Positions 1 to 44,100 of a DNA stretch of 46,624 nucleotides are shown piece by piece. The stretch covers positions 1 to 46,624 of IMG/VR virus record IMGVR_UViG_3300010371_000014, one strand, 5' to 3'. The translations under genes and the position numbers were made by a program. The DNA comes from a virus. Within the stretch, counting starts at the first letter, position 1; the number at the start of each line of letters is the position of its first letter. Below the pieces are notes generated by a model. The model was not told the DNA's origin, did not search any database, and saw only the letters and a program-made list of their open reading frames with translations.

Positions 1-123
1 CGTTGCAAGTACCTGTCTCAGCTGATCCCAGCCTCTTCGAAAGTATCATCAGTTCGTTCTTGCCGAACTATTATCTGCGCGTGCGTAGCGATGGACTCGG
101 GGTCGAAGGTGTCACGAACGTCA
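1..123. repeat. Left copy of an exact 123-bp terminal direct repeat (identical to 46502-46624). Indicates a circular assembly overlap or terminal redundancy, with a unit genome of 46,501 bp.
   Basis: Base-by-base comparison of 1-123 (cgttgcaagtacctgtctcagctg...gtcacgaacgtca) with 46502-46624 shows identity over the whole length to the window end. Confidence 0.95.
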
Positions 124-5987: not shown

Positions 5988-6713
5988 CTAGAACACCCCC
6001 TCGTCGGCATCTTTTGCATACAGGTGCAGTGAGCCGGTGAAGAACGTGAAGTGCCCGACCGGCATGACCAGCAGCTTCGCCAGGTACTCTTGCAAGCGGA
6101 TGGCGAGTGCAACGTCGTACGGGAAGTGTGTCAAGAAGTCGCTAGACCGCATGACGTAGATCAGCTGGAGCGCGCCGTTGCGACGCATGAACTGATAGTG
6201 CAGCGAGCAGGGGATGCGCTTCTTTCCGCCCATGTTGCGCAGGTCCATCGGCCCGCAGAAGATGGGCAGGACGGCCTGTCGCGTATCGGGATGATCATGC
6301 AGCTCGTGAAACACGGCTGCCAGCGCACCTGGCGCTTTGATCGGACCAGTGAAGTCCACTGGCATGTTCATGCGCTCAGAATACGTGTAGGCGAATGCGC
6401 CGTTGTGGATGAACTGCGACCAGACTTCGCGCCGCAGTTCCCACGCCGTGCCGGGATTGACCATGTCCGTGATGCGCTCAGCGAACTCCGCTTCGAGCCA
6501 TGTGCTGCTGAGCTCGAGGCTGTCCAGCAGTCCCTTGGCGTCACTGCCGTCGACGATCGTGAAGCCGTAGGGTGACAGTTCCAGTGTTCGGTAGTCCTGA
6601 TTATCGCGGACATCTTTGTCCTGCATGGTTTGGGGATGTACCATGACCCCCATTTCATGGATGTCGCGACGCACATCTGAGTACATCTCTCGGCAGTTTT
6701 GGTAGATACGCAC
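5988..6713 (-). CDS. Thymidylate-synthase-fold pyrimidine C5 enzyme, predicted deoxycytidylate hydroxymethylase or methylase (T4 gp42-like).
   Basis: The nucleophile motif KRIPCSLHYQF is present. YVMRSSDFLTHFPYDVA aligns with ThyA YQRSCDVFLGLPFNIAS, placing Asp at the Asn177-equivalent position. The C-terminal GSLHLY and DTRQAV (phosphate-binding Arg region) also fit. Confidence 0.65.
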   Translation of the reverse strand: MRIYQNCREMYSDVRRDIHEMGVMVHPQTMQDKDVRDNQDYRTLELSPYGFTIVDGSDAKGLLDSLELSSTWLEAEFAERITDMVNPGTAWELRREVWSQFIHNGAFAYTYSERMNMPVDFTGPIKAPGALAAVFHELHDHPDTRQAVLPIFCGPMDLRNMGGKKRIPCSLHYQFMRRNGALQLIYVMRSSDFLTHFPYDVALAIRLQEYLAKLLVMPVGHFTFFTGSLHLYAKDADEGVF

Positions 6714-6715
6714 GA

Positions 6716-7804
6716 TTAGCTCCGCTTCAGGTGTCTGAGGATTTGAGGGATGAGATAGCGAGGGAAACGCGACGGAACCGCCTTGCCTGTGAAGAGCTGT
6801 AGACGGGCGTGATAGGCTCGGTTGAAGATGCGCTGTCCATTCCAGAGATGGAAGTCATCGGGCCAGTCCATAAGGCGTGCGCGCTCACGTGCCGTAAGAA
6901 CCATACCCGTGAGCGGGTGCTGTAGAGTGCCTCCTGAAATGACGCGAGATTTCCCATCGAGCAAAAGACGTACACGTCCGAGCTTCTTTGTAAGTCGATG
7001 AGTTGTCCGAGTACGGTACGGCCAGCACGCCATTGGATGGAGAGCAAGGTATCGAGCCGCCAGCTCCCCTTGGGTCCGAATGTAGGCAGGCGGGTCATCC
7101 GTTGTAGGGTAGCTTCCCGACGGCAGGTCATCAAGCGCGGCGTGGACGTGCGCCAACGATGGTAGATCTTCAACCATTGGTAGATCACTTATGGCCTCCC
7201 AGACCGTGGCCGGCCCGCTGAGTCGGTGCTTTGGGACTTTGAGCTCGAACTTCTTCCCGGGTTTTCGGATCCCGACCACCCAGAGTCGCTCGCGCCGCTG
7301 CGGAGTCCCATAGTCCCAGTTGACCATGGTGATGTAGGTGAGATGGTACTTGGGAAGCGTAGACTCCCACCAGGCAGGCGTGGCTACCCTCTGGAGAATC
7401 TTCGGCAGATTGTCCAACGCAAACGCCCGAGGACGATATGTATTGACCAGCCCTGCGAAGAGAGGAAGCAACCCCACGCGACTGGCCCGACGTGCAGCCA
7501 GAAAAGCACGCTCCGCAGGGTCTTTGTCAAGCGAATGCGCCACGCCCAAGATACTGTGCGCCCCGCATGGCGGATGTCCCAAGGCAAGATCAGCTTCATA
7601 GAAGTTGTGCTCCAAGTGCACTTCAATGGTTCTGCCTTCATCAAGCTTATAAATGCATGGTGCATTCGGGAAGTTGAGATTCCAGACATCTGGGATCGTG
7701 CGATACGGCGCGCGTGTTTCGATATTGCCAATCACTTGCATACCAGCATCCTGCGCCTCGCGGAGCAGCGTACCGATGCCGGCTAGGATGCCGACGGCTC
7801 GCAC
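6716..7804 (-). CDS. DNA (cytosine-5)-methyltransferase-like protein with divergent catalytic motifs, 362 aa.
   Basis: Motif I ILAGIGTL, motif IV GHPPCGAHS (consensus PCQxFS), motif VI ALDNLP (consensus ENV), motif VIII QRRERLWVVG, motif IX LTARERARLMDWPDDF, motif X GKAVPSRF (consensus GNAVP). The GTG start at 7804-7802 shares one base with the upstream TAG. Confidence 0.75.
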   Translation of the reverse strand: MRAVGILAGIGTLLREAQDAGMQVIGNIETRAPYRTIPDVWNLNFPNAPCIYKLDEGRTIEVHLEHNFYEADLALGHPPCGAHSILGVAHSLDKDPAERAFLAARRASRVGLLPLFAGLVNTYRPRAFALDNLPKILQRVATPAWWESTLPKYHLTYITMVNWDYGTPQRRERLWVVGIRKPGKKFELKVPKHRLSGPATVWEAISDLPMVEDLPSLAHVHAALDDLPSGSYPTTDDPPAYIRTQGELAARYLALHPMACWPYRTRTTHRLTKKLGRVRLLLDGKSRVISGGTLQHPLTGMVLTARERARLMDWPDDFHLWNGQRIFNRAYHARLQLFTGKAVPSRFPRYLIPQILRHLKRS

Positions 7805-8424
7805 TAGTAAGAACTCCGTTGGCGGAACTCGTTCACCTGCGCTTTGCGGAAGTAGTAACTAAACAGATGTTCTTGTGTGTACCCCAGGTCGGCCCACAGG
7901 AGCAGCATGGCGACGTAGGTATCTAGCAGGGCATTGCAGAACCTGTTGACATCTGTCGGGACCTGCGACTCTTTCCACGCCTTGTTCTTGAGGAAGTTCA
8001 TGGCGACGCCGAGCTTGAACGTCACTTGCCAGTACGCATCGCTCGATGCTGAATGCCGGCGGACTGGTGGGAAGTCTTTCGTGGCGACGAGGCACTGATG
8101 CACGCCGACGCCAGCAAAGAGGCACAGCTCCACGAAGAAGTGCATCGCATCAGCGAGTTCTTCGAGTGCGTGGACTTCACCTTCCTCGCGGTGCTTGTGC
8201 TTGAACCATGCTTCGTACGACTCGGTCAGTTCTTCGACCGTGCGCCACGCGAAGTCTTTGAGCACCTTCTGCCCGCTGTGCGTGTGCAGCGAGACCGGCC
8301 AGTCTGGGAGCTTCTCGATATCCCGATATCGGGTCATGAGCTGCTCTTGCTTGAGGAAAATCATGGGCAGCATCTCAGCCCAAGTCTTCGGCGGGGCGGG
8401 GGCGATGGTGTCGTTGACGTTCAT
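7804..8424 (-). CDS. All-alpha NTP pyrophosphohydrolase (dimeric dUTPase / dCTPase-like, MazG superfamily).
   Basis: Acidic helices AWRTVEELTESYEAW and ALEELADAMHFFVEL, then LKNKAWK and the C-terminal KAQVNEFRQRSSY, resemble recalled dimeric dUTPase (dUTPase_2) signatures. I set the start at MNVNDT (ATG 8424) because of the ATGA overlap with the kinase stop. Confidence 0.5.
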   Translation of the reverse strand: MNVNDTIAPAPPKTWAEMLPMIFLKQEQLMTRYRDIEKLPDWPVSLHTHSGQKVLKDFAWRTVEELTESYEAWFKHKHREEGEVHALEELADAMHFFVELCLFAGVGVHQCLVATKDFPPVRRHSASSDAYWQVTFKLGVAMNFLKNKAWKESQVPTDVNRFCNALLDTYVAMLLLWADLGYTQEHLFSYYFRKAQVNEFRQRSSY

Positions 8425-8975
8425 GGGCAGCGGAGGGCAAAAGTGGATTGATTGAGCAGATCGCGGTGCCACGACAACAACTTCTCAACAAGTGCATTGT
8501 GCGGATCACATGTCCAGTCGTATCGAAAGACGAGATAGCCACGAGCGAGTTGCGGGAGGCGGCGACGATACGCCTCGGCGATAAGCAGCGGGTCACGATC
8601 GTAGAGCTGCGTCCGCTTGGCCCATGTGGCACGAATCACTTCATCTGCCGTATCACACCAGATGATGAGCATCGGATATGTCCTGAACAGCGCGTAGAGT
8701 TCGAAGTGTTCAGCGGTCGTCATACGGCAGCCACCTCGGAAGATCGGCCCGTAGATGCATTCACTGAAGAATGTCCGATCACTCACACTGTTGGCGTGTG
8801 CGCGCAGATCTTCGTTGGGCGGCAGCAACGCATCGACGTGCGTTCGGCCGATCGTGCCCTCCATTCCTGGCTTGAACCGTTCGCGCTTTAGCAGTCGGAG
8901 TGATGGATCGCCGGCCAGCAGCTTGTCGATCAGCGTGGACTTCCCAGTATTGTCTGCCCCTTCAACAACGATCAT
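8421..8975 (-). CDS. P-loop deoxynucleoside-monophosphate kinase (thymidylate-kinase-like).
   Basis: The Walker A context MIVVEGADNTGKSTLIDKLL is typical of Tmk/dNMP kinases. The size is about 184 aa. I set the start at ATG 8975 (ATGA overlap with the primase stop). Confidence 0.6.
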   Translation of the reverse strand: MIVVEGADNTGKSTLIDKLLAGDPSLRLLKRERFKPGMEGTIGRTHVDALLPPNEDLRAHANSVSDRTFFSECIYGPIFRGGCRMTTAEHFELYALFRTYPMLIIWCDTADEVIRATWAKRTQLYDRDPLLIAEAYRRRLPQLARGYLVFRYDWTCDPHNALVEKLLSWHRDLLNQSTFALRCP

Positions 8976-11083: not shown

Positions 11084-11827
11084 CTACTTCTTCCGGCGCG
11101 CGTTCTTCTTGGCCGGTGCCGCCTTCTTCTTGGCGGGCTTCTTCACCGGCTCATCATCCTCGTCTTCTTCCTCATCCGCTTCATCTTCTTCCTCGTCGTC
11201 ATCATCGTCCGATTCGTCCTCGTCCTCGCTCTCCTCTTCGTCTTCGTCGTCGGACTCGTCATCATCGGCGTCGTCATCATCGTCAGACTCATCTTCATCG
11301 TCTTCCGACTCCTCCTCGTCATCTTCATCTTCTTCGTCGCTTTCGTCATCCGCATCTTCTGTGTCTTCGTCATCGGCATCTTCGTCCTCCTCTGATTCCT
11401 CGTCCTCGTCAGCCGCCGCCCCGAGCGGCAGCCACTGGACGACCTCGTTCTTGTCATTGCCGTTGTACTTCGTCTTGCGGAGCACGACGTCCAGCTCCGT
11501 GCCGGCGATCAGCGTCAGTAGGTCCTGCAGCGTCTTGATCTTCTTGCTGGCCTTGGCGAAGTCGAGCCCGCACGCCTTCAGGAGCTGTGCGATTTTCCAG
11601 CCGACGGACGCGCCGACTGCGTCGAAGAACGTGACGCCTTTGGACTTGCCGTTCGTGATGGTCGCGTGCACGTTCAGATAGTCGCCGTTGCTGCCCGCTT
11701 TGATCGACGTGCCCTTCGCGCTGCCCTTGCTGATCTTCGCCGTGTACCGTCCGCTAGGCGCGACCTTGAACTTCTTGTCCTCGAAGTCTTCCTTGGTCAG
11801 TCCTGCGATCTTGCTGCTCTTCGGCAT
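11084..11827 (-). CDS. SSB-like protein (DUF669-type fold expected) with an 87-residue polyacidic tract and a lysine-rich C-terminal tail.
   Basis: The N-terminal 135 aa (PSGRYTAKISKG...GDYLNVHATITNGKSKGVTFFDAV...WKIAQLLKACGL) resembles the DUF669 proteins that accompany Sak4-type ATPases. Residues 140-226 contain only D, E, S, A and T. The tail is PVKKPAKKKAAPAKKNARRKK. Confidence 0.55.
   Translation of the reverse strand: MPKSSKIAGLTKEDFEDKKFKVAPSGRYTAKISKGSAKGTSIKAGSNGDYLNVHATITNGKSKGVTFFDAVGASVGWKIAQLLKACGLDFAKASKKIKTLQDLLTLIAGTELDVVLRKTKYNGNDKNEVVQWLPLGAAADEDEESEEDEDADDEDTEDADDESDEEDEDDEEESEDDEDESDDDDDADDDESDDEDEEESEDEDESDDDDDEEEDEADEEEDEDDEPVKKPAKKKAAPAKKNARRKK
11150..11410 (-). repeat. 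Low-complexity GAN/GAR codon tract encoding the 87-aa D/E-rich segment.
   Basis: The plus strand reads as runs of tcntc/gtcntc (tcatcatcctcgtcttcttcctcatc...). It generates a spurious poly-Ser ORF on the opposite strand (10836..11681). Confidence 0.9.
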
Positions 11828-15705: not shown

Positions 15706-16155
15706 TTACACGGTTGCGCGCACTACTGGAAGCCCTGCTGGTGGAATGACTGAAATGACCGTGATATGCGCCGCCTGGAGTAGGTCAATACCGTCGGTCT
15801 TACGATAGAACTGTCGAAAATACACCTTCCCAATCCCGGTGTTGATGATCGCCTTGGCGCATGATGCGCAGGGCGAGTGCGTGACGAAGAGTACCAGATC
15901 AACATCTGTCGACACGCCACCAGGTGCTTTGAGCATCGCATTGAGTTCCGCATGCACGCAACCGCACGCGCCTACTTCGTCCGTATCGCAGATGTTGGGC
16001 AGTCCAGCGGCATTCCCATTGTAGCCGATAGCCACAGCCTTTGTGAGCGAACTGTTGGTGATCACCGCACCGACGCGCAGCCGTCGGCAGGTCCCGCGCT
16101 GTGCAACGACCTCAGCGATTTCCATCCACATCTCTTCGCGACTAATGCGATACAT
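15706..16155 (-). CDS. dCMP deaminase (ComEB / T4 Cd-like zinc deaminase).
   Basis: The zinc motifs CVHAELNA (HAE) and PCASCAKAI (PCxxC) are present with typical spacing. The size is 149 aa. Confidence 0.85.
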   Translation of the reverse strand: MYRISREEMWMEIAEVVAQRGTCRRLRVGAVITNSSLTKAVAIGYNGNAAGLPNICDTDEVGACGCVHAELNAMLKAPGGVSTDVDLVLFVTHSPCASCAKAIINTGIGKVYFRQFYRKTDGIDLLQAAHITVISVIPPAGLPVVRATV

Positions 16156-20173: not shown

Positions 20174-20547
20174 GAGTGCCTCGCCGACGGTCCAGTCTTC
20201 ATCATCCGATCCAGCGCGCGTGAGTGCTGTGCACCCGCAGGATTGAAGATGGAGAGCGGGTCATCGCTATCATCGTCCTCCCCGCCGACGAGCGGATCAA
20301 GGAAGTTGCCGATGCGCGGGTCCTCGACGACACCGTCGGTGTACTCGGGATCCACGGCGACGGACTGCCACCGTGCGTGCATCTCCACTGCGGTCAGGCT
20401 GTGCGCCAGCCACGCGCTCCATGCCGCGTAGCGGCCAAAGAGGCTGGGGTAGCGCAGCTTCGGCTCGGCCGCAGCGAGGGTAAGCATCGCCTGACTGTGC
20501 TCGGTGAACGCGGCCTGCGCCTGCCGGAACTTGGGGGAATGTTTCAC
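20170..20547 (-). CDS. Hypothetical protein, 125 aa.
   Basis: An ORF in the operon chain with an acidic patch, GGEDDDSDDP. Confidence 0.5.
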   Translation of the reverse strand: MKHSPKFRQAQAAFTEHSQAMLTLAAAEPKLRYPSLFGRYAAWSAWLAHSLTAVEMHARWQSVAVDPEYTDGVVEDPRIGNFLDPLVGGEDDDSDDPLSIFNPAGAQHSRALDRMMKTGPSARHS

Positions 20548-21332
20548 TTGTGCCTCCTGGCGGCGCGTGCCGCCCGTGTGCGTGTCCGGACGATGGCGTG
20601 CTTGGCGTTGCCGCGGGCGATGAGCGCGGCCTCGCGCTTCGCCTGCTTCGTGCTGACGGCGTCAGCATCCCGCTTGTAGCGCTGCTGCGTGTGGAGCGCG
20701 GCGAGCGTGACGATGACGTCCGCCCGTTCGTTCTCCCGTGCGCGGACGTAGGCGGTGCCGTCCGTATCGGTGAGGCGCAGCGCCGTGCCGAGCGCGGTCG
20801 GGTAGTAGGCCGACGTCCAGCCCGCGCGCTGCGGGGTGTCCGCCGTCTTCACCAGCGCCCGTGCGGTCGTGAGTTCGGTGGTGAGCTTGGCGCGCCCGAC
20901 GGCGTCGTCGGTTTCTCGGAGCCGCGCTTGCAGCTTCGGGATGCTGCGACGACTGTACGCAATGACGTCCGCGCTGACGGTGTGGCGAATGGCATCCGAA
21001 CTGATGCGCGGGACGAGCGCATCGTCCTGCGCCCGTGTGTCCCGTGTCCGAGGTGTGGCGCGTTTGCCGCCGAAGGGGACCGTTTTCCCGCCAGCGCCTT
21101 GCGCACGGAGGGTGCGGAAGTTGTCCTTACCGCCCGCCGCCGTGGTGAGCCGCTTCCGCATGGCCGAGCGGCTGCCGCCGTACTGCTGTACGAGGGCTTT
21201 CAGACTGGTACCCTGACTCCACGCCGCGTAGGCAGGGTCTTCGGCCGCCGCAGGCCGTTTGCGCTCCACGGCGGGGCGCTGCTGCGCCCGCGCCGCGAAG
21301 TCGCGTTTGGTGTAGGTGAGTTTCCCTTTCAC
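20544..21332 (-). CDS. Hypothetical basic protein, 262 aa, possibly an HTH DNA binder.
   Basis: SLKALVQQYGGSRSAMRKRL is HTH-like and the composition is very Arg/Ala-rich. It is coupled on both sides. Confidence 0.45.
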   Translation of the reverse strand: MKGKLTYTKRDFAARAQQRPAVERKRPAAAEDPAYAAWSQGTSLKALVQQYGGSRSAMRKRLTTAAGGKDNFRTLRAQGAGGKTVPFGGKRATPRTRDTRAQDDALVPRISSDAIRHTVSADVIAYSRRSIPKLQARLRETDDAVGRAKLTTELTTARALVKTADTPQRAGWTSAYYPTALGTALRLTDTDGTAYVRARENERADVIVTLAALHTQQRYKRDADAVSTKQAKREAALIARGNAKHAIVRTRTRAARAARRHK

Positions 21333-22828: not shown

Positions 22829-23040
22829 GGAAGTCCCCTTCCCACACTGCGTCACACGGCGGTAACCACCCTTCCAGCGGAGGGTCACAGGGGGCGGGGG
22901 GAGGGGCGGTGGGGCATGGCGCTCGGCTAGAGACCGACATCCGCCACGCACGACTTGCAGCAGACGTCCTCTGGTTGATGCGTCGAGACCCCCGCCTGCT
23001 CCAGACGGCGGTACCACCCTTTCCCGCAAGCAACCGATGA
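22825..23040 (+). CDS. Hypothetical Gly/His-rich protein, 71 aa.
   Basis: The GTG start overlaps the upstream TGA (GTGA) and the stop overlaps the next ATG (ATGA). Its low-complexity composition lowers confidence. Confidence 0.3.
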   Translation: MRKSPSHTASHGGNHPSSGGSQGAGGGAVGHGARLETDIRHARLAADVLWLMRRDPRLLQTAVPPFPASNR

Positions 23041-23156
23041 AAATGCTGCTGCTCGCTTTCAGCCTCGGGATCGTGATCGCATGCCTCACGCTCGCCATCA
23101 TCGCCCACGGCCTCGTCTGGGCGCTGACCGTTGATGACCCTGAGGATGCCGAGTGA
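23037..23156 (+). CDS. Small single-pass membrane protein, 39 aa (below the ORF-track cut-off).
   Basis: My manual translation is MKMLLLAFSLGIVIACLTLAIIAHGLVWALTVDDPEDAE. It has an ATGA junction upstream and a GTGA junction with the terL start. Confidence 0.4.
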   Translation: MKMLLLAFSLGIVIACLTLAIIAHGLVWALTVDDPEDAE

Positions 23157-24595
23157 ACGCGAAGCAACGCCTCCGGTTCTGGCGGGACGATCCCATCGCC
23201 TTCGTCAAGGACTGTTTCAAGCCGAAAGAGATTGAGGACTGGCAGTGTGAGATCCTCGCGGCCTTCCCCGCCACACAGCGCATCGCGGTCCCGGCCGCCA
23301 AGGGCTGCGGCAAGACCTGCGTCGAAGCGTGGCTCATGTGGAACTTCGTGGCCACGCGCCCCCACGCCAACATCGCCGCGACCTCCATTTCCAGCGATCA
23401 GCTCCAGGACGGCTTGTGGAAGGAGCTCGCCTAGTGGCAGCATAAGAGTCCCTTCTTGCTCAATCAGTTCGAATGGCAGAAGACCCGCGTCGTCCAGAAA
23501 GACTACCCGTCGACCTGGTGGATGTCCGCCCGCAGTTGGGCCAAGAGCGCCGATGCGTCAGCGCAGTCACTCACCCTGGCGGGACTCCACGCCGACTACA
23601 TGATGTTCGTCCTGGATGAGTCGGGCGGCATTCCGCTCCCCATTCTCGCGACCGCCGAAGCCGCCTTGGCCAGCGGCATTGAGTGCAAGCTCTTTCAGGC
23701 CGGCAACACGACGACCCTCGATGGCCCGCTCCATCTCGCCTGCACGACGCACGCCCACCTCTGGAAGACCGTCCACGTCACGGGCGATCCCAATGATCCC
23801 AAGCGCTCCAAGCGGATCGGGATCGAATGGGCCAAGCAGCAGATCGAACTCTTCGGGCGCGAGAACGCCTGGGTCAAGGTCAACGTCTTCGGCGAGTTCC
23901 CGGCGGCGAGCCTCAACGCGCTGCTCGGGGCCGAGGAAGTCCGTGCGGCCATGCGGCGGCAGCTCACACCGGATGACTACAGTTTCGCGCAGAAGCGCCT
24001 CGGGGTCGATGTCGCACGGTTCGGCGACGATCGCACGGTCCTCTTTCCGCGCCAAGGGCTCTGGACGACCTTCCCGACGACGTTGCGCGGCGAGCGGACC
24101 ACGAACATCGCGGCCAAGGTCATCATGGCGCATCGGGACTTCGGCAAGGGACACGAGGTCCTCACCCTCATTGACGACACGGGGCACTGGGGACATGGTG
24201 TCATTGACAACTGTATCGCCGCCGGCATCAACCCCATTGGCGTGCAGTTCCACGCACCCGCCCTCGACAAACGGTACAAGAACCGGCGCGCGGAGATGTG
24301 GCTGCAGATGGCCGAGTGGGTCAAGCGCGGCGGCGCTCTCCCCGATATCCCTGAGCTCATTGGCGAGCTCACGGTCCCCACGTACACCTTTGCCAACGGG
24401 CAGTTCCTGCTCGAGGAGAAGGATCTGATCAAGGAAAAGCTGGGCCGATCCCCCGACTTGGCCGATGCCCTCGCGCTCACCTTTGGGATTCCGGAACTGC
24501 CCACGAGCGAGGGATTTCCCCTCGGCTACGAGGGCGCGGCCCAGGGGGCGGGCATCCGTTCAGAATGGGATCCTTACGATCCGGACCGTTCCTAA
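23153..24595 (+). CDS. terL: Terminase large subunit, interrupted by a single in-frame TAG at 23432-23434. The ORF track shows it as two ORFs, 23153..23434 and 23456..24595, in the same frame.
   Basis: Walker A is AVPAAKGCGKTCV (before the TAG) and Walker B is YMMFVLDESGG (after it). The nuclease domain follows, with LGVDVARFGDDRTV and IDDTGHWGHGV. Both pieces share frame 2 (23153 and 23456 are each 2 mod 3), and the sequence reads through as KELA*WQHKSPFLLNQFEW. Confidence 0.85.
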
Positions 24596-24609: not shown

Positions 24610-24822
24610 ATGCCCTCACGCTCCCCCAAGCAGCACCGGCTCATGGAAGCCGTCGCGCACGATCCGGCCTTCGCGAAGAAGGTCGGGATTCCGCAGTCGG
24701 TGGGGAAAGACTTCGCGGCAGCTGATGCCGCCACGACTGCTCCATCACACGCCGAAAAGGTGGCGCACGTGATCAAGCACACCGCCACTCACGGCCAGCT
24801 TCCCTCAGGAGGTCGTCCATGA
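24610..24822 (+). CDS. Small conserved phage protein (DUF3008-like), 70 aa.
   Basis: MPSRSPKQHRLMEAVAHDPAFAKKVGIPQSVGKDF matches my recollection of a widespread short phage family. I set the start at ATG 24610. Confidence 0.5.
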   Translation: MPSRSPKQHRLMEAVAHDPAFAKKVGIPQSVGKDFAAADAATTAPSHAEKVAHVIKHTATHGQLPSGGRP

Positions 24823-25022
24823 AGCACCCCGTTCCGCCCGTCAGCCCGCAGGCCAGCGACACCAAGCACACGAAGTCTGCCGCACCCGCTGGCCACGCCG
24901 CCAACGTCACACGCGCCATCAAGCACGGCGAAACGCACGGCACGATGGGCAATCACGCGACCGGTGAGGATGCCGGCTTCCCGCACATGGGCGAAGCGCA
25001 TCCGCCTGGCGAGTCGTACTAG
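24819..25022 (+). CDS. Hypothetical His-rich protein, 67 aa.
   Basis: ATGA overlap with the upstream stop. It shares the HAxxVxxxIKHxxTHG motif with the preceding ORF and ends in TAG. Confidence 0.45.
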   Translation: MKHPVPPVSPQASDTKHTKSAAPAGHAANVTRAIKHGETHGTMGNHATGEDAGFPHMGEAHPPGESY

Positions 25023-25025
25023 CGC

Positions 25026-25475
25026 GTGCAGTACGCCGTCGAGGATCTCACGCCGCTGCTGCAGCAGGAGCTCACGCCGCTCCTGCACAAGCATTGGCGT
25101 GAGATTGCGCATTTCCAGGACATTCCCCTCAATGTCGACTGGGCGACGTACTACCGTGTCAATGGCGATGGGTGCCTGCGCATCTGCACGGCACGGCACG
25201 AACAGCAGCTGGTGGGCTACGCCGTCTTCTTCATCCGTGCCAATCCCCATTACCAAGATTCGCTCCAAGCCGTGCAGGACGTAATGTTCATGCTGCCGGC
25301 GTACCGTGGACGCGGTGGGGCACTCATCGACTACGCCGAGGCGCAGTTGCGGGCGGATGGCGTGCAGGCGATTTATCAGCACGTCAAGGATGCGTTTGAC
25401 TTCGGGCCGCTCCTCCAGCGGTTGGGCTATGTTCCCGTTGAGCGCGTCTGGGTCAAGCGCCTGGATACCGTCTGA
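25026..25475 (+). CDS. GNAT-family N-acetyltransferase, 149 aa.
   Basis: An acetyl-CoA-binding core pattern is present: VQDVMFMLPAYRGRGGALIDYAEAQLRADG (Q/RxxGxG/A). The length is typical for the family. It has a GTG start. Confidence 0.7.
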   Translation: MQYAVEDLTPLLQQELTPLLHKHWREIAHFQDIPLNVDWATYYRVNGDGCLRICTARHEQQLVGYAVFFIRANPHYQDSLQAVQDVMFMLPAYRGRGGALIDYAEAQLRADGVQAIYQHVKDAFDFGPLLQRLGYVPVERVWVKRLDTV

Positions 25476-25780
25476 TGGCCGCGACTGCCGCCATCATCAG
25501 CGCCGTCACCGCCATCGGTTCGGCGGGCTACAGTGCGGTCAAGAGTAATCAGGTGTCACAGCAGGAGAAGGGTACCCTCAATCAGAATCCGCTCCCGAAG
25601 CCGCCGGACCCCAACGTACAACAGGCCGCAGCGGGCGAGGCGGGCGCGCAGGCGGCAGCACAAGCGCAGCAGATCGCAGGCAAGAAGGCTGGCGGCTACG
25701 CCGGCACGATTCTCACAGGACCCAACAGTACGCTCACTTCCACCACAGGACCACAGCGCAAAACGCTGCTCGGGCTCTAA
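25475..25780 (+). CDS. Hypothetical (probably virion-associated) protein, 101 aa.
   Basis: TGATG junction with the GNAT gene. The N-terminus is hydrophobic, the middle is Q/A-rich, and the C-terminus is GTILTGPNSTL...KTLLGL. Confidence 0.45.
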   Translation: MAATAAIISAVTAIGSAGYSAVKSNQVSQQEKGTLNQNPLPKPPDPNVQQAAAGEAGAQAAAQAQQIAGKKAGGYAGTILTGPNSTLTSTTGPQRKTLLGL

Positions 25781-25783
25781 GCC

Positions 25784-26188
25784 ATGTTGCTCACCGCAGA
25801 CCAGAAGTTGCAGATCGTGCTCGCCGGTGCCAAGACGACGCTCAACGCGCACGGCACCGTCGCCTACGAGGATGTCCCGCTCGGCGCCAACCTCGATCCG
25901 ACGAGTCCCAAGTTCCCGCAGTACGGGACAGCGGACTTCGATACCAATGGCGTCACAGTGGTCGATGTCGTGCCAGCGCCTGCCGCCGGATTCGTCCGCC
26001 GCATTCTGGCGGTGCACCTCAACAACCTGGACACTGGCACGATCACCTTCTCGCTCAATAAGTACAGCCTCTCCCTCGCGGCGTCGCTCGGCGTCTTCTG
26101 GAAGTGGACGGCCGCGACGCTCTACCAGGTGCAGTACGCACGTGAGAGCGGCTGGAAGATGTTCACCAGCGCGGGCGTGACCGAGTAG
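25784..26188 (+). CDS. Hypothetical protein, 134 aa.
   Basis: An ORF between the packaging and portal genes with beta-rich composition. It ends in TAG. Confidence 0.5.
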   Translation: MLLTADQKLQIVLAGAKTTLNAHGTVAYEDVPLGANLDPTSPKFPQYGTADFDTNGVTVVDVVPAPAAGFVRRILAVHLNNLDTGTITFSLNKYSLSLAASLGVFWKWTAATLYQVQYARESGWKMFTSAGVTE

Positions 26189-26192
26189 TCGC

Positions 26193-28115
26193 GTGACCGT
26201 CCCGCTTTCACCTGTTGCGGTTATCGTTGATCCCCCAGGGTCAGATCCGACTCTGGGGGTGCAGCGTGATCGCACGGGAAAGAAAAAGAAGAACGGCACG
26301 AAGGAGCGGCCCACACCGAACCCTGAACGGGTGCGAGCGCAGATCGCGATGGGACAGATGGAAGCGGAGAAAGCCAGCTGGCTGACGCACTGGATGGAGT
26401 TGACCGACTACATCCTGCCGCGCCGCGGACGGTTCAGTACCAGCGATAACAATCGCGGCAATCGTCGCACCAAGCACATCGTCGACATGACGGCGACGTT
26501 TGCCGCGAAGATTCTCTCCTCTGGTATGATGAGCGGGATCAGCTCGCCGGCACGCCCATGGTTCCGGCTCAGCACGGGTGATCAGGATCTCGATAGTCTC
26601 TCGTCCGTCAAGAACTACCTGCAGACGGTCCAGCGGCTGCTGTCCACGGCCTTCTTGCAGTCCAACCTCTACAACGCACTCCCCATCGTCTACTCGGACC
26701 TCGGCGTCTTCGGTACCAGCGCCATGGCCGTGCTGGATGATGATGAACAGATCTTCCGCTTCTATCCGTATCCGATCGGCATGTACATGATCGCGAACGA
26801 TGACAAGATGCGGGTGCGGACCTTTGCCCGACCGTTCCGCATGAGCGTTGAGCAGATCGTCACGCGTTGGGGACGGATGCAGGGCGGCGTGCCAGACTTC
26901 ATGCGAGGCGAGGAGACGAACATCTCCCCGCTCTGTCAGCGGCTCTGGCAGAACAACATGCGGACGCAGTGGGTTGACATCGTGCAGATGGTATATCCCA
27001 ATCTGGCGTACTACACCAATGCCATCGACTCCAAGTACAAGGCATTCAAGTCGATCTACTTCGAGTACGCCGCGCCGACGTACATGCTCCTCGAGGAGAA
27101 AGGCTACGACGAGTTCCCACTCCTCGTGCCTCGCTGGGAAATCGCGGCCGAGGATGTCTACGGCTCGAACTCGCCTGGCATGACGGCGCTGGGTGACATC
27201 AAGCAGCTGCAGTTGATCGAGAAGCGTATCGCCCAAGCCATTGAGAAGCAGGTCAATCCGCCTGTCAAGGGACCGACAGCGATGCGTGCTGCCAAGGTCT
27301 CTACGTTGCCAGGTGACATCACCTACGTGGATGAACCGCAAGGTGCTGGCAAGGGCTTCACGAACGTCTACGAGGTCAAGTTCGATATTCAGCATGCGGA
27401 GGAGAAACAGGAGCAAACCCGATCGCGCATCGAGCGCGCCTTCTTCGCTGATCTGTTCCTCATGTTGACCGAGATGGATCGGAAGGAAGTCACGGCGACG
27501 GAAATCATGGAGCGGAAAGAAGAGAAGCTCTTGGCGCTCGGGCCAGTCCTCGAGCAACTCAATCAGGACTTCTTCAATCCATTGATCCATCGCTGCCTTG
27601 CGATCATGCGGCGGAAGAATCTGCTCTCACCGCCACCGCCCGCGCTAGCCAAGATGAAGGGCTTCCATATTGAGTACATCTCCATCATGGCGCAAGCGCA
27701 GCGCATGGTGGGTATTGCCAATATGGAACGCTTCGTCAGCTTCGCGACGTCGGTCTCGCAAGCTGTCGCCGGTGCAGCTGAGAATCCTGAGGTCTTCGAT
27801 ACGGTGGATATCGACTACCTCATCAACGCCTATGCCGAGTCGGCCGGCATTGACCCGCGCATCATCAAGCCAGAAGAAGCGGTGCAGGCGTTGCGCAAGG
27901 CGCGTGCTGATCAGCAGCAGGCCGCACAGAAATCGCAGCAGATGGAGTCGATGTCCAAGTCGGCGAAGAATCTCAGCGGGGCTGACATGTCAGGTGATTC
28001 AGCGCTCACGCGCATGTTCGGCCGCAAGACAGCTGGACGCACGTTGAGCGGGATGAACCAACCGCCGATCGGTCCACAAGGTGTCCCTGTCCCGGCACAA
28101 GGCCCAACCGCATGA
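26193..28115 (+). CDS. Portal protein (podovirus head-to-tail connector type); start uncertain (GTG 26193 or ATG 26349).
   Basis: About 600-640 aa, located downstream of terL. WLTHWMELTDYILPRRGRF and the later conserved blocks resemble T7 gp8-type portals. The C-terminus is Q/A-rich. Confidence 0.75.
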   Translation: MTVPLSPVAVIVDPPGSDPTLGVQRDRTGKKKKNGTKERPTPNPERVRAQIAMGQMEAEKASWLTHWMELTDYILPRRGRFSTSDNNRGNRRTKHIVDMTATFAAKILSSGMMSGISSPARPWFRLSTGDQDLDSLSSVKNYLQTVQRLLSTAFLQSNLYNALPIVYSDLGVFGTSAMAVLDDDEQIFRFYPYPIGMYMIANDDKMRVRTFARPFRMSVEQIVTRWGRMQGGVPDFMRGEETNISPLCQRLWQNNMRTQWVDIVQMVYPNLAYYTNAIDSKYKAFKSIYFEYAAPTYMLLEEKGYDEFPLLVPRWEIAAEDVYGSNSPGMTALGDIKQLQLIEKRIAQAIEKQVNPPVKGPTAMRAAKVSTLPGDITYVDEPQGAGKGFTNVYEVKFDIQHAEEKQEQTRSRIERAFFADLFLMLTEMDRKEVTATEIMERKEEKLLALGPVLEQLNQDFFNPLIHRCLAIMRRKNLLSPPPPALAKMKGFHIEYISIMAQAQRMVGIANMERFVSFATSVSQAVAGAAENPEVFDTVDIDYLINAYAESAGIDPRIIKPEEAVQALRKARADQQQAAQKSQQMESMSKSAKNLSGADMSGDSALTRMFGRKTAGRTLSGMNQPPIGPQGVPVPAQGPTA

Positions 28116-30805: not shown

Positions 30806-31099
30806 ATGAAAGTTCGCGCACTGGCGCACTGCTACGTCGGTGAGACGTACCGCAAGCCAGGTGATGAGTTCGATATGAAGGGACCGATTCCCGACCATGT
30901 CGAACTGGTGGATGCACCGGCACGAAAGCAGAAAGCCAGCTCATCAACCTCACCCGACAGCGATGAGAGCGACGAGTTCGAGGAGGAAGATGAACTCGAA
31001 GAGGAAGAGGAAGAGGCAGAAGGTGAAGAAGAAGAGGCAGACGAAGACAGCGCTGAAGCACCTGCGAAGAAGAAGCGGAAGCGGAAGCGCACGCGGTAG
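30806..31099 (+). CDS. Small protein with an acidic tract followed by a polybasic tail, 97 aa.
   Basis: A globular N-terminal 40 aa is followed by SPDSDESDEFEEEDELEEEEEEAEGEEEEADEDSAE and then APAKKKRKRKRTR. AGGAAC-like RBS region lies upstream. It ends in TAG. Confidence 0.55.
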   Translation: MKVRALAHCYVGETYRKPGDEFDMKGPIPDHVELVDAPARKQKASSSTSPDSDESDEFEEEDELEEEEEEAEGEEEEADEDSAEAPAKKKRKRKRTR

Positions 31100-36475: not shown

Positions 36476-38196
36476 TGCCAATGTCAACCGCGCCGACACC
36501 AAAGGGTCCCAGCGAGGGACTGGCACCTCTGCCTGGTCCGCGCATCTCGACTGACGCACCGATTGAAGCCTTTGGTGGTGGACGTGCTGACCGGACGATC
36601 GACGTCAGTGGCATGCAACGTGCGATGGTTGATCTGTATCAGCGCGAGCATGCGAATGCCACCGAAGTAGCCATCAATGATGCTGACAATCAGCTCCAAG
36701 GGTTGTCGACGAAACTGCTCTACGATCCTGATCAGGGTGCGCTGAATAAGATGGGGAAGGATGCGTTTAGTACGCCGGAGAAGGTGCAAGAGGGCTGGCA
36801 GAAAGGCGTCAGTGATATTGCCGCGTCACTCGGCACACCGGAGCAGCAGGAGCTCTTTCAGCATCGCGCACAGGCGCGCTGGCAGTCGGTCAACGCTGAG
36901 GTGCAGCGCCATGTTGGTGAGCAGAAGAAAGTGTACGAAGCGCAGACCACGCAAGACTTCATCAAGAACCGACAGGACGATGCGCTCCACGCGGTCACAC
37001 CGCAGGGCTTGGACGAACCGAAGGTCGATCAGTCGATCGCCGAGCAGCAGGCAGTCATCGCCGATCACGGCCGTCGCAACGGCTGGTCGGATGAGATGAT
37101 CAAGGCCGAGACGGCCAAGCAAGTGAGCACAACGTATAGTCACGTGATCAACTCACTCTTGGATGGTGAACAGGACATTGCTGCGAAAACATTCTACGAC
37201 AAGCATCAAGACCAGCTCCAAGGCGCTGAAGCCTTGCAGGTGGGCAAGGCGGTCAAAGAAGGATCGTCGCGGGGCGAGTCACAGCAGCAGTTTGATCGCA
37301 TCATGTCAAAGCCGGATATCGATGAACCAGCGGCAGTCAAGGCGGCACGCGACATCGATGATCCGCGTGTCCGTGACTTGACTGAACAGCGCGTGCGACA
37401 GGAGTTCACCGAACGCCGGCAAGCGGCCACGGCGGCACGCGAGCAGAATCTGCAGAACGTGGCCGACTTCATTGATCAGACTGGCGGCAAGAAAGATCCA
37501 CCGCCGTCGATGTGGTCAGGACTGACCGGCGCTGAGCGGGTCGAAGTCGCAAAGTGGCGGCAGCAGAAGATCGACGGTGTGAAGCCCACGACCAACTGGA
37601 CGTACTTCTACGATCAGATGCAGCTGGCGTCCAGCGATGCCGGCCGTGAGCAGTTCCTGCATGAACCACTCCTGGCGCATCGCAGTGAGCTCGCTGATCC
37701 GCAGTTCGAGAAGCTGACGGACTTGCAAGCGAGCCTTCGGAAGGGCGAAGACAAGAGCGACGACCTGGCGGGCTACCGGACATCGACAGGCATCGTGCAC
37801 GATGCACTCACCGCAGCTGGCATCAATCCGAATGCCAAGGCTGGATCTGATGATGCGACCGCCGTCGCGTTGTTCCATAGTGAAGTCGATGCGCAGATTG
37901 AGCAGTTCAAGCAGGATAAGGAACGACCCGCTGGCCCGAAGGACGTACAAGACATCGTGGACAAGTTGATGCTCAAGAGCACGATTCCAGGCAGCGGATT
38001 CAACTTCCTTGGCCACACGTTCAATCAGCGTCGGGGCTCGCTCTTCGAGCAGCAGGTCACGAAACTCAACGAGATTCCGGCTGCTGAGCTTCTACAGATC
38101 AAGGCCGCACTCCGTGCATACAATCGTCCGACGACCGAAGCGAACATCATTAGCACTTATCAACTGGGGCACATGAAGCCACAGGCGAAGCCATGA
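36475..38196 (+). CDS. Internal virion (ejected core) protein B-like, 573 aa.
   Basis: TAATG junction with the upstream gene. The sequence is helical and charged. It sits between the small and giant core proteins, as with T7 gp15. Confidence 0.4.
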   Translation: MPMSTAPTPKGPSEGLAPLPGPRISTDAPIEAFGGGRADRTIDVSGMQRAMVDLYQREHANATEVAINDADNQLQGLSTKLLYDPDQGALNKMGKDAFSTPEKVQEGWQKGVSDIAASLGTPEQQELFQHRAQARWQSVNAEVQRHVGEQKKVYEAQTTQDFIKNRQDDALHAVTPQGLDEPKVDQSIAEQQAVIADHGRRNGWSDEMIKAETAKQVSTTYSHVINSLLDGEQDIAAKTFYDKHQDQLQGAEALQVGKAVKEGSSRGESQQQFDRIMSKPDIDEPAAVKAARDIDDPRVRDLTEQRVRQEFTERRQAATAAREQNLQNVADFIDQTGGKKDPPPSMWSGLTGAERVEVAKWRQQKIDGVKPTTNWTYFYDQMQLASSDAGREQFLHEPLLAHRSELADPQFEKLTDLQASLRKGEDKSDDLAGYRTSTGIVHDALTAAGINPNAKAGSDDATAVALFHSEVDAQIEQFKQDKERPAGPKDVQDIVDKLMLKSTIPGSGFNFLGHTFNQRRGSLFEQQVTKLNEIPAAELLQIKAALRAYNRPTTEANIISTYQLGHMKPQAKP

Positions 38197-41100
38197 CCGG
38201 TCCCGCTGTTCCACTGACCGCACCGCCGAACTACACCGAACTCCTCGGTGAGCAGACGCCGACGGCACCCAAGGACGACAATCCGTACTTGGATGTCCTC
38301 AAACAGCAGACACAACAGAGCGGACAGCAGATCAAGCAGTCGGTCGCCGTGGCCTCGCAGCGCGGCACACCCGAGCGGTGGGCCAAAGTCTTGGAGATGT
38401 CGCAGAAGACCAAGCTGCCAACTGACGTCGTTGATCGCAACTACGACGAACTCACAGCAGCCGATGATCGCAATAGTCTCGATCACAATGATATCGCACA
38501 CGAAACGCCTGCGGTCGGACAATGGTTACACGATCCGGATAACGCGACACTCGGCCGTCGTGAGATTCCAGCACTCCAGTCGATTGAACGCGGTGTCCGA
38601 CAGTTGCAGCCGCCTGACCTCACGCCGGCACATCAGAGTGGGATGCTCTCAGCGCTCGGTGCGAGCGTCAATGATACGCATGCGACCGCGTGGCAGCTCG
38701 GGGCGGTCTTCGGCTTGACGGATCCTGCCACGGCGGCTGGACAGATCGCTGAGGCCAACCGTCGATCCAAGGCGATCGCGGCCAACGCACCAGACTACGC
38801 CAAGGAGTTCCAAGCTGCCATGGCGCAACACGCTGGCGATGTCAATGCGGCATTCCGCAGCTTCACCGATGCTAGCGCGGCGTTGCGTCGGCGTGACATC
38901 TTGAGTGCCCTACAGCAGTACGGCACTGGTGCTGTCAAGACGGTGGGCGAAGCGCTGGATATGGCGGGCGCGGCAGCTACACGCGGACGAGGGCTGACCT
39001 ACTCGCTCCTGCAGGGACTCGGCTCGATGCTCCCAGTCCTCGAGGGGACCACGATAGGCACGGGCACAGGTGCAGCACTTGGTTCAGTGGTCCCCGTGCT
39101 TGGCACAGCAGTTGGCGGTTTCGTTGGCGGTGTCGTTGGCACGTTCGGTGGCATGTTGCCCGTGTCTGTAGGACAAGCGATCAGTGACGAGTTCAAGAAG
39201 CGTGGCATCGATCCGACAGATGAAGTGGCCTTGCAGAAAGCGCTGTCCGATCCTACCCTTATGGCGTCGCTGCGATCGACGGCGTTGAAGAAAGGATTGA
39301 CGGTTGCCGGCGTGACATCGCTCTTTGCAGCATTCGCTGGCGCGGCATCAGCCGCCGCTCGCGGTGCTGGCACGGTTACGCGGGCTGCGGCCGCAGCGAC
39401 TGACGTTGGGGTACAAGCAGCGGGGCAAGGCGTCGCACAGCTCGCAGGGGGCAAGGTAGCAGGCGAGAAAGCCGATCCGGGCGCAGCGTTGAGCACAGCG
39501 ATCAGCATGCTGGGCTTCGGTGTCGCAGAAGGAGCCCTCGGCGCAGGACGGCGTGGCCTCTTCCACGCTGATCCGGTCGAAGCAGCCGAGGAAGTGCACA
39601 AGGCCACTGATGATGCACTGACCTCAGTGAAGAATGCACAGGTGCTGCAGGAAGTCGGGAAGGCGATTGAAGAAGCGCCGACCACAGCGGCAGCTCCCGA
39701 TCGTCTCAAGCAGCTCATCGAGACAGCGTCCGGTGGGAAGGATGCGTCGCACGTCTACTTTCAGGACGAAGCGTGGGACAAATACTGGACCGGTCAGGGC
39801 GCATCGCCTGCCAAGGCGGCGGCTGATATCATGGGGGACGGCGGGAAGGCGTATGATCGTGCGAAGGCCACGGGTGCCCCGCTCGCGATTCCCATGGGCG
39901 ACTACATGGCGAAGGTCGGTCCTGATCCCGAACATTGGGCTGGGTTGCTGCAAGATGCGCGGACTGTCATCGATGGCCCATCGCTGAAAGAAGCGCAAGA
40001 GCATCTCGAGGCGCTGCCGGCCACGATGAGCGCACTCGCCAAGGAAGCGCAGGGTGTCACTGAGGAACCGGCTGGTGAGCCACTGACGATCAAGCAGCAG
40101 GTGGCCGAGCAGCTCCAAGGCGCTGGCATGTCGGCCATGGAAGCGAAGCCAAATGCACAGATTCTCGAATCGGTCTTCAAGACGTTGGGCGAACGGGCTG
40201 GCATTGATCCCAATGAGCTGTATAAGCGGTATGGGCTGACAGTTGATCGTGGCGAGCAATCTGTCGAAGGACAAGGACTAGAACAGCGTGGTCATCAACC
40301 GCGACTGGTATCTGATGATCTCCATCGTCTTGCTATACATCTTGAGGAACTTTCGAGAACTGCGGAAGAAGAACCGAAGGCTTCACAAGAGGCACTGGAA
40401 GACGCTGCCACACTCCGAGACATGGCTAGACTCGTTGAAGGAGGAGCTTCTCGCGAGGATATCAATAAAGAAATGGGAAAACGGGGTATTGATATTGATC
40501 ATCCGCTTTCTGACCTATTGAAGGACCCAGAGAAAGGTGCTCCTATCTTTGTCAAGTGGATGCGCGGTGCTGATATCCTTGGTGCGCAACGATCAACGTT
40601 CAATCAGGGCGGACCGGCCATCCCGCTTCCTGAGGGGATGTACTCCAAGGCCGAGCGCGTCATCAATGAGAAGATGGGCGGCAAAGCGAAACCGAGTGAG
40701 ATTCGGAAGATGCTCACGAACGCTGGTATCAAGGCAGATGAACTAGAGTGGACAGGACTTAGGTCTTTTCTCGACGAGCGCCTGCCTGATGAGGCTGAGT
40801 CAAAAGAAGCTGTGCTCCAGCATCTGCAAGCGCATCGGTTGGATGTTCTCGAAGTGCAGAATGATGCGAAAGGCGGCGCGACATTTGATGAGCATGCTGT
40901 GCAAGAGTATATGGACGAGCGTATGCAAGAAGATGCACGTGCTATGGCAGAAGAAGTCATGGAAGGTGCACGTCTTCGCCCGCATCTACAGATTGTTGAA
41001 GGTGAAAATGGGCTGTGGGAAATACAAGGTCCAAAAGGTGAGAATCTGTACTATGGTGGCAAGAACGAGCCCATTCCAGATTTGGACAATAACACCTACG

Positions 41101-44100
41101 GATCGGTAGCCTCGGCACTCGAAAACTATTTCATAGAGTCGTTTGACGAATCTGAGTACCGTGACATGGCGATGGATGAAGTCGGGATGCCAACCGAGGA
41201 AGGTGAAGGACAGTACGAGAACTATACGATGCCAGGTGGTACGAACTACCGTGAGCAGCTCTTCACGCTGCCGAACATCGGTGGGCGGGGCTTCGCCGAA
41301 GGACATTTCCAAGAACCCAACGTCTTCGCGCATCTGCGGATGAAAGATCGGCTGGATGCCGAGGGACGGAAGATGCTCTTTGCTGAAGAGGTGCAAAGCG
41401 ACTGGCATCAGCAGGGACGTGATCGGGGCTACGATGAAGAAACACCGAAGCAGAAAGAAGAGCGTGATGCAAAGCGTGAGGATCTCCGCCAACAGCGCGA
41501 ACACATCATTGACCAGAAACAGGCTATCACGAACTCAGCTGAGTTCGAACGCCTGACTTCAACAGGTGATCTTTCGTCGATTGAGGAAGAAGATCTCGCA
41601 GTCATGACGAAGAAGATCGAAGCCTTGAACGCTCAGCACAACGAGGTCAACAACCAGCTGAATCGTCTGTCCGATAACTATGGTCGGAAAGTACCAGAAG
41701 CGCCATTCAAGAAGAACTGGCATGAGTTCGTGATGAAGCGGATGCTGCAGTACGCCGTGCAGCATGGCTACGACGCGATTGGCTGGACGAAGGGCGACAC
41801 GCAGAACGATCGGTACTCGCTGGAGAAGACAATCAAGGCAATAAGTGTTCATCACGATTTTGAAGGCAAGTTTGCCATCGAAGCTATGCAGCACGGACAT
41901 GTGTATGATCAGCACATCGGTTCGTACACAGCCGAAGAACTGCCCGGCGTCGTTGGAAAAGAAATGGCGCAGAAGATCATCGACGATAGAGCACTCAAAG
42001 AAACCGGTGCTACAACTTTTCACGGGCTCGAGCTGAAGACCGGCGGCGAAGGGATGCGCGGCTTCTACGATAAGATCCTGCCCGACTACCTGAATAAGCT
42101 CGGCAAGAAATACGGAGCGAAGGTCGAAGAAACGACGACACCAGTTGCCGGATTCAACGAAGTCGACAACGAAGACGAAGCACGTCTCATGGAGCAGGAG
42201 TTCGGTCGCAAAGCGACACGCGAACCTGAGCGACGGGAACCGGTCCACGAGATGGTGATCACACCCGAGCTCCGGGCACAGGTCAAGAACATCGGCTTCG
42301 AGCTCTTTCAGGCGGCGCGCGGGCGCATCACGTTCGGCGACGGACAGCACTTCAACATCAGCTTGCTCGAAGGCGCGGATCGTTCCACTTTTATCCACGA
42401 AACGGGGCATCTCTACACGCAGGTCATGCAGGACTTGGCGAAGGAGACGCCCGCGATCGCACAGGACTACCAAGTCTTGCGTGATTGGGTCGGGGCGCAG
42501 GGTGATGCAGCGTTGAGTCGCGAGCAGCATGAGCAGATCGCACGCGGCTTTGAAGCGTACATCATGGAAGGCAAAGCACCGAGCACGGCGCTGCGCTCGG
42601 CATTCTTCCGCTTCAAGCAGTGGCTCACGCAGATCTACCACGAGCTCAGCGGGCTGGGCGTGCAGCTCACACCGGCGGTCCGCGGCGTTTTCGATCGGCT
42701 CATCGCGAGTGATCAGGAAATAGCCAAGGCCGAGCATGCAGCTGATGTCACACCGCTCTTCGGCGACAATCCGAAAGCGGTCGGCATGAATGACGAGGAC
42801 CAGGCGAAGTACGCCACGGCGGTCGCTGATGCGCATCAAGCGGCCGAGGAGCAGCTGAGCCAGCGCCTCATCAAGGACATGCGGCGCGAAGAGTCGCGGC
42901 AGTGGAAGCAGTGGAGCGGGCCGGTCCGTGAACAGGTGACAAAGGAGGTTGAGGCAAATCCGACCTATCAAGTCCTCGACTACTTGACGAAGGGCGTCAC
43001 ACCGCCCGATCGCGCAGTGCCCGCCGGATTGAAGCTGAGCAAGGCCGCACTCGTCGGTGCCTACGGCAAGGACATTCTCAACGGCCTCCCGCGTGACGCG
43101 ATCACGACGACGGGCGGTGTTCATCCTGATATCGTCGCTGAGCTCTTCGGCTTCCAGTCGGGCCGTGAGATGGTCGATGCCATGCGCGCCGCGCCAGACA
43201 AGGAGGCGCTCATCGCACAGCGCACCAATCAGCAGGTGCAGGCCGAGCACGGCGCACGGATGACGCCCGAGGAGGTCGAGCAGCAAGCGCAAGCCGCTGT
43301 CCGTGGCAACGACAAGCGCGTGCAACTCCTGCGGAAGGAACTCGACATCCTGGCACAGCAGCACATGCCGGCGGTCAAGGGGATGCTCAAGGCGCTGACC
43401 AAAACGGTGCCGCCTGAAGAGGTGATCGCAGAGCAAGCCGCGAAGACCGTTGGCGCACAGACCGTCGGTGACATTCGGCCGTACGACTACGACCTCGCCG
43501 CCAAGCGGAATGCCAAGGCCGCACGTGAAGCGTTCCTGGCGGGCGACGTTGATCAGGCGTTCCAACTGAAGCGGAAAGAGCTGCTGTCCACGGCGCTGTT
43601 CAATGAAGCGACCGCTGCCCGAGCTGAAGTTGAGAAGGCCATCGATGGCTTCACGAAAGTCTTCGGCCGTGACGATACATTGTCGAATCATCGTGACATG
43701 GACTTGGTCAATGCGGCACGCTCTGTCCTGGCACGGGTCGGCCTCGGCCACGCGGATGCACCGCCAGAGGCGCATCTTGAGCAGATGCAGAAGTACGACC
43801 CGGAAACGTATCATGCCGTGCAGGAGCTCCTCGGCGAGTTGCCCACCGCTGACGGTGACTACAAGAGCCTGCCGCTCGATACATTCCGACAAGTGAAGGC
43901 AACAGTCGACGCGCTCTGGTCGCTCTCGCGACGCACGCAGCAGTTTGAAGTCGCTGGCAAGATCATGGATCGCGAGTTCGTCCGTGGCCAGTTGATGGAA
44001 CGCGCGCTCGCCTTGCGCACACCCGAGCAGCTGGCGACGTTCAAGCGCACGCCCGGACAGTGGGATCGTACGAAGCTGCGACTGCTCGGCGGTGAAGCAG

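Follow-up and report, generated by a model that had tools for sequence, protein, structure and literature searches.

The stretch of DNA analysed here (46,624 nucleotides, called the window below) contains a gene for the large subunit of a phage terminase (TerL) that is interrupted by a single in-frame TAG. The surroundings of this stop, as read from the window, are GAG CTC GCC TAG TGG CAG CAT AAG. Upstream lies an open reading frame of 93 aa with a GTG start (23153..23434) and downstream one of 379 aa with a TTG start (23456..24595). The ORF list places both in one frame, and reading through the TAG yields a single colinear protein of 480 aa. An earlier reading of the sequence alone had proposed that the two frames form one TerL, split by an in-frame stop with Walker A before it and Walker B and the nuclease domain after it. 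This proved correct on all points: the translated read-through product is continuous, and the alignment with the PHROG terminase-large-subunit profile (PHROG 2), which covers residues 28-449, crosses the stop. The elements of the gene are the following.

23153..24595, plus strand: TerL gene, 480 codons with one in-frame TAG inside (read-through translation, PHROG, homologues, fold).
23294..23317, plus strand: Walker A motif (P-loop) AAKGCGKT, residues 48-55, upstream of the stop (sequence; G53 and K54 invariant).
23432..23434, plus strand: the TAG, codon 94 of TerL; AAG (Lys) in all other assemblies of the phage.
23456..23458, plus strand: TTG, the first in-frame start-type codon past the stop, with AAGAG 7 nt upstream of it (ORF list, sequence context).
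23606..23620, plus strand: Walker B motif with the catalytic glutamate, FVLDE, residues 152-156, downstream of the stop (sequence; D155 and E156 invariant).
23960..24487, plus strand: RNase H-like nuclease domain, about residues 270-445 (D286, D341, D435 and D438 invariant; Foldseek).

The assignment as TerL was based on PHROGs, on annotated phage homologues and on a fold search; Pfam gave no matching family, and a profile search of PDB sequences with TerL gave no match. AAKGCGKT fits the Walker A pattern of TerLs, [AG]xxxxGK[ST], and MFVLDE (residues 151-156) fits the Walker B pattern hhhhDE. The eight residues marked as invariant in the list are among the invariant columns of an alignment of 120 sequences. 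The nearest cultured phages are the Xanthomonas CP2-like phages, whose TerLs share 45% identity with that of the window across 99% of the length. For the structure we used the AlphaFold (AF2) model of P0001, an intact protein that is 99% identical to the TerL of the window (mean pLDDT 93.8). This model matched the solved TerL structures of Sf6 gp2, T4 gp17, HK97, D6E and T7 with E values of 2e-18 to 1e-10, and its top 40 Foldseek matches were TerLs, apart from one Avs3-terminase complex. Its nuclease domain matched the TerLs of E217, Sf6 and G20c with target-normalised TM-scores of 0.60-0.66 (Foldseek). Residue 94 is placed by the model within helix 81-97, in the core of the ATPase domain. The truncation thus occurs at residue 93 of 480, within the ATPase core, and AAG>TAG is one substitution, as in an amber allele.

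The homologue search returned 3465 proteins, of which the best 120 were about 463-504 aa long, with P0110 (812 aa, with an insertion) as the sole exception. P0110 carries Pfam PF05204 and PF14528, which we take to be homing-endonuclease (LAGLIDADG-type) domains; this would suggest an intein-interrupted TerL within the family. Another homologue, P0013, sits on an 863-kb contig, and some relatives of this TerL may therefore be prophages.

The window itself represents a complete genome of 46,501 bp that closes on itself, because bases 1..123 are identical to 46502-46624 (a terminal overlap) and a contig from a public sequencing run (X1, see below) runs across the end junction. An ENA contig of the same phage measures 46,642 bp, i.e. 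46,501 bp plus an overlap of 141 bp; overlaps of these lengths, 123 and 141, suggest the largest k-mer size in a de Bruijn assembly. The GC content is 59%, and about 51 genes, covering about 92% of the genome in the standard code, were predicted with a home-made codon-usage caller, which is rough. The half of the genome coded on the minus strand contains genes for replication (a family-A DNA polymerase (PolA), a prim-pol/D5 helicase, a SNF2 helicase, a PD-(D/E)XK nuclease and an AAA_24 ATPase) and for nucleotide metabolism (a thymidylate-synthase-like protein, a C5 DNA methylase, a dUTPase and a dCMP deaminase). The plus-strand half contains TerL and a head module of the BPP-1 type (portal PF12236, Bbp19-like, GP7 capsid, Bbp16-like), as called in near-identical or related contigs. 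TerL stands upstream of the portal gene (26193-28115), as it does in relatives. A Pfam scan of 30 of the approximately 51 predicted proteins revealed neither an integrase nor a repressor. The gene set looks virulent-type and the genome podophage-like, distantly related to the Xanthomonas CP2-like phages. A defective prophage was rejected in view of the self-closing assembly together with the lack of integrase and repressor among these 30 proteins.

Several other regions of the genome deserve mention. A hydrophobic ORF of 39 aa (23038-23156, plus strand) ends in GTGA, overlapping the start codon of TerL, and a gene of equal size (39 aa) is called at the same position in a more distant relative, L023. 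Just downstream of TerL, 34 bases (24630-24663) have a contig depth of 25-57, as compared with about 9.6 elsewhere, and many contigs branch there; this seems to be a sequence common to several related phages in the same soil samples. A GNAT acetyltransferase gene (25026-25475, plus strand) is inserted between TerL and the portal gene, a position that is kept in L019, an 84%-identical relative. On the minus strand, a region of 9-15-nt periodic repeats encodes a 247-aa, extremely acidic (Asp/Glu-rich) protein at 11084-11827, immediately upstream of the prim-pol/D5 helicase gene. The genes for the thymidylate-synthase-like protein, the C5 cytosine DNA methylase and dUTPase_2 form a cluster, with the dCMP deaminase further on (5988-8472 and 15706-16155, minus strand), a set that hints at modified pyrimidines in the phage DNA. 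Finally, one ORF of 2643 aa (38193-46124, plus strand) takes up 17% of the genome. Its product has an N-terminal LPD22 domain (large polyvalent protein), a weak lysin/tape-measure-like stretch and a strong match to phrog_9880 (unknown function), and may be an internal virion protein that is ejected.

The fragments of 93 and 379 aa are already deposited as gene calls for a JGI/IMG contig of 46,624 bp, so that the TAG belongs to the deposited assembly and does not result from corruption of the window file. We therefore looked at the same phage in other assemblies. The genome was present in only two indexed public runs, X1 and X2, which are soil metagenomes with depths of about 9.7x and 4x, respectively; they were compared as Logan contigs, which drop minority variants. 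The X1 contigs span the whole genome and differ from the window only at positions 20667, 23432 and 25505. At 23432, the first base of the TAG, the contigs of both X1 and X2 have A, as do the ENA contig (L025) and the Logan contig L026, while a JGI contig from another sample (L001) reads AAG at the site of the TAG. Five bases separate the ENA contig from the window in the 21.4 kb compared, among them those at 23432 (A in the ENA contig), 20667 (C) and 25505. Over the parts compared, the four other assemblies (X1, X2, ENA and JGI L001) are more than 99.8% identical to the window. The TerL frame, broken in the window, is uninterrupted in L001, L025, L026 and X2. Likewise, the 90% cluster of P0001 holds both fragments together with the intact 480-aa TerL of the ENA contig (46,642 bp), and an intact TerL is also found among the Logan contigs of SRR6185312; this run is apparently X1, since its 3858-bp Logan contig is the one recorded for X1. 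The change at 23432 is thus a single A-to-T transversion that is private to this one assembly.

Other searches did not recover the T. Three sampled 31-mers spanning the TAG were absent from the contigs of every indexed run, and an exact-pattern search of IMG/VR, in which the variable base of the site was set to N, had no match. A scan of metagenome contigs with a 20-base pattern gave 17 loci, 16 of which were chance matches in unrelated DNA and one a distant TerL relative with AAG. The sequence-only reading had stated that a sense codon at this position would make the stop an assembly artefact. Contigs of X1 and X2, the ENA assembly and JGI contig L001 all have such a codon, but it is AAG (Lys) and none of the codons that had been given as examples (CAG, TGG or TAC).

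The comparison with orthologues that had been called for gave a concordant answer. Of 119 homologues, 106 have Lys opposite the stop and the others Leu, Thr, His, Tyr or Ile, and neither a stop nor a gap occurs at codon 94 in any of the 119. The codon is AAG in L019 as well as in two further relatives, L020 and L021. These alignments show AAG to be the ancestral codon 94, from which one step, a single transversion, accounts for the TAG.

To see what kind of change this is, we listed the differences that are private to one assembly.

Window, 20667 (C>A) and 23432 (A>T).
L001, 23029 (A>T), 23128 (C>G), 23253 (T>A) and 25412 (C>A).
ENA contig L025, 25954 (C>A) and 25974 (C>A).
Position 20667 lies in gene 20544-21332 (minus strand, 262 aa); it is C in X1 and the ENA contig and A in the window, so that codon 222 specifies Glu in the first two and Asp in the window.

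The site at 20667 was not alignable in L019, so that no polarity was assigned to it. All eight private differences (two in the window, four in L001 and two in the ENA contig) are transversions, whereas the other differences between samples (four sites private to X2 and 25505) comprise four transitions and one transversion. The excess of transversions among the private differences gave p = 0.007 in a Fisher test on only 13 differences. The private changes, e.g. I34N and P64Q, look unselected; I34N, in the TerL of L001, affects a residue for which most homologues have V, A or I. This all-transversion spectrum suggests library, damage or sequencing artefacts in a low-coverage consensus. As to how often such a change would create a stop, 3.2% of all possible single-base changes in the genome make a stop inside a gene, which gives a probability of 6-9% that two or three private bases include one or more stops.

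The TerL gene is therefore an ordinary one, and the stop a private single-base change, which is probably a consensus or sequencing error in a low-coverage assembly. An unprogrammed A-to-T change at 23432 would have converted the conserved Lys94 codon AAG to a stop in an ordinary TerL gene. The wrong base would have entered the consensus of an approximately 10x short-read assembly as a sequencing, library-damage or bubble-resolution artefact, and the phage itself would make a normal, full-length TerL. The choice of an artefact over a minority allele is an inference from contigs rather than from raw reads.

Among the explanations put forward by the sequence-only reading, an assembly or sequencing error and a rare defective variant are those that stand, while readthrough or suppression found no support. 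In the case of a defective variant, some of the soil phage DNA would really carry AAG>TAG and the assembler would have taken the minority path; genomes with this null allele would replicate and be unable to package their own DNA, being dead ends or rescued briefly by a co-infecting phage with wild-type TerL. We regard this as possible, though doubtful. De Bruijn assemblers normally discard words seen once, and their path usually needs at least two supporting observations. The T was therefore probably present in at least two reads or mates, which is also what a real minority allele would give. Microdiversity is real in this phage: position 25505 is truly polymorphic for G and A (Val or Ile at codon 11 of gene 25475-25780), both bases occurring in X1 (depth 6 for A and 3 for G) as well as in X2, and several sites differ between X1 and X2. 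Since the window carries at 25505 the allele that is in the minority in X1, it may follow a genuine minor haplotype. Furthermore, 8 of the 9 coding differences among assemblies are non-synonymous, as expected of very young mutations that have not been purged, but also of errors. Against a null allele, the majority base at 23432 is A in X1 and X2 as well as in the ENA assembly and JGI contig L001. The allele would also be lethal. Because the genome looks virulent, with no lysogeny genes among the proteins scanned, a packaging-null allele could not shelter in a lysogen and should stay at a frequency close to that of mutation, far below what is needed to be sampled twice at 10x. The private spectrum, being made of transversions only, also fits damage or error better than replication mutations. 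We consider it very unlikely that the T is real at appreciable frequency, i.e. that there is a TerL-null sub-population, kept by co-infection with the wild type (a packaging 'cheater') or by an amber-suppressor host.

A programmed or tolerated readthrough, in which a host amber-suppressor tRNA or near-cognate decoding would throttle the dosage of TerL, is highly improbable. It is only a formal possibility, given by the in-frame position of the stop. The stop is missing from all 119 aligned homologues and is not conserved among close relatives, the codon being AAG in the four sibling assemblies and in L019-L021; with AAG in its place in genomes that are more than 99.9% identical, a stop found in one assembly is ruled out as a conserved regulatory device. 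No tRNA or tmRNA gene was detected in the window with ARAGORN, a phage suppressor tRNA being a trait of about 40% of TAG-recoded phages. A stretch of 121 nt that spans the stop and the bases following it (23420-23540) did not fold better than shuffled sequences (z = 0.29). The +4 base, following the TAG, is T, and UAG-U is reportedly, from the work of Poole, Brown and Tate (1995) in E. coli, the strongest context for termination at UAG. A suppressor would moreover lengthen the products of the nine other genes that end in TAG.

These nine genes also bear on the idea that TAG now encodes an amino acid, whether through genetic code 15 or a pyrrolysine-type decoding. Its appeal is that TAG-recoded gut phages typically carry an in-frame TAG in TerL (10.1101/2021.08.26.457843). 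In such phages, late genes (structural and lysis genes) contain numerous in-frame TAGs that align with Gln, TAG does not serve as a terminator and suppressor tRNAs occur; their coding density rises by more than 10% (in genomes of 5-100 kb) when TAG is read as sense, and the proposed evolutionary path to recoding starts in low-GC phages (10.1101/2021.08.26.457843). We found none of these features. The whole genome has one in-frame TAG, aligned with Lys rather than Gln, and a GC content of 59%. With TAG as sense, the only fusion supported by homology adds 21 bases to a code 11 density of about 92%, as estimated with the rough gene caller; a rise of more than 10% was thus not reached under code 15. 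The 51 called genes end in TGA (24), TAA (17) or TAG (10, including TerL). The TAGs at 25020-25022, 26186-26188 and 31097-31099 coincide with the C-termini of the L019 orthologues, which end in TAG, TAA and TAG, respectively. The sequence-only reading had taken these three for genuine terminators and the genome as not globally TAG-recoded; both views were borne out, the former by the orthologue ends and the latter by the nine TAG terminators, the density in the standard code and the lack of a tRNA gene. Reassignment is effectively refuted, and we give it almost no credence; pyrrolysine-type decoding is out on the same grounds as code 15.

Four of the nine other TAG-ended genes (at 11084, 16819, 17942 and 25020) precede a gene in the same frame, and we considered whether these could be further read-throughs. 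This was rejected, as four of nine is near the one-third expected by chance, with gaps of 1-5 codons. At 11084, the prim-pol gene that comes after the TAG begins at position 1 of its own Pfam domain, and for the 24819/25026 pair the L019 orthologues are in different frames.

Equally close to impossible, in our view, is a functional two-piece TerL, made of the 93-aa P-loop fragment and the 379-aa fragment started at TTG 23456 and associated non-covalently: the TTG after the stop does have a weak AAGAG 7 nt upstream, but the DNA at 23456..23458 is identical in L001 and is ordinary coding sequence in the intact siblings, so that the TTG is merely a formal restart site that has not been selected for, the break would lie inside a helix of the ATPase fold core according to the model, and no split homologue was found among the best 120 of 3465.

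These observations carry a caution. A lone in-frame stop in an essential phage gene mimics recoding or regulated readthrough, and independent assemblies can expose it as one private base. Until reads show otherwise, the deposited entries of 93 and 379 aa should be regarded as artefacts, and so should any split terminase or alternative code that is deduced from them. If the base were real and frequent, it would represent a natural packaging-defective phage genotype persisting in soil, which would be relevant to phage population biology.

Compared with known systems, the TerL of the window shares with those of the CP2 group, Sf6 gp2, T4 gp17 and HK97 the two-domain architecture (ATPase plus nuclease) and its motifs, the P0001 model matching the structures of Sf6 gp2, T4 gp17 and HK97 with E values of 2e-18 to 1e-13. 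Unlike them, it belongs to a divergent subfamily, with no Pfam family and no sequence-level PDB match, and it stands beside a BPP-1-like head module (portal PF12236, Bbp19, GP7, Bbp16). Code 15 crAss-like and Lak phages resemble it by an in-frame TAG within TerL, a late gene, but have many in-frame TAGs, a gain in density, TAG aligned with Gln, often a suppressor tRNA and, on the proposed path to recoding, a low GC content, none of which is seen here. Amber mutants of phage packaging genes, e.g. T4 gene 17 am and lambda A am, are laboratory-selected and kept on suppressor hosts. Like them, the sequence of the window shows a one-base change from a sense codon to TAG in the large terminase, with a truncation that would allow packaging only with a suppressor tRNA or a helper; in contrast to them, it comes from a single metagenome contig, and nothing points to propagation of the allele. 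The case also resembles that of assembly-fragmented terminase genes in phage genomes from metagenomes, in which TerL is called as two ORFs and is a single gene in relatives. It differs from these in that the break is a substitution, rather than an indel or an intron, and in that the sibling assemblies pin it to the exact base.
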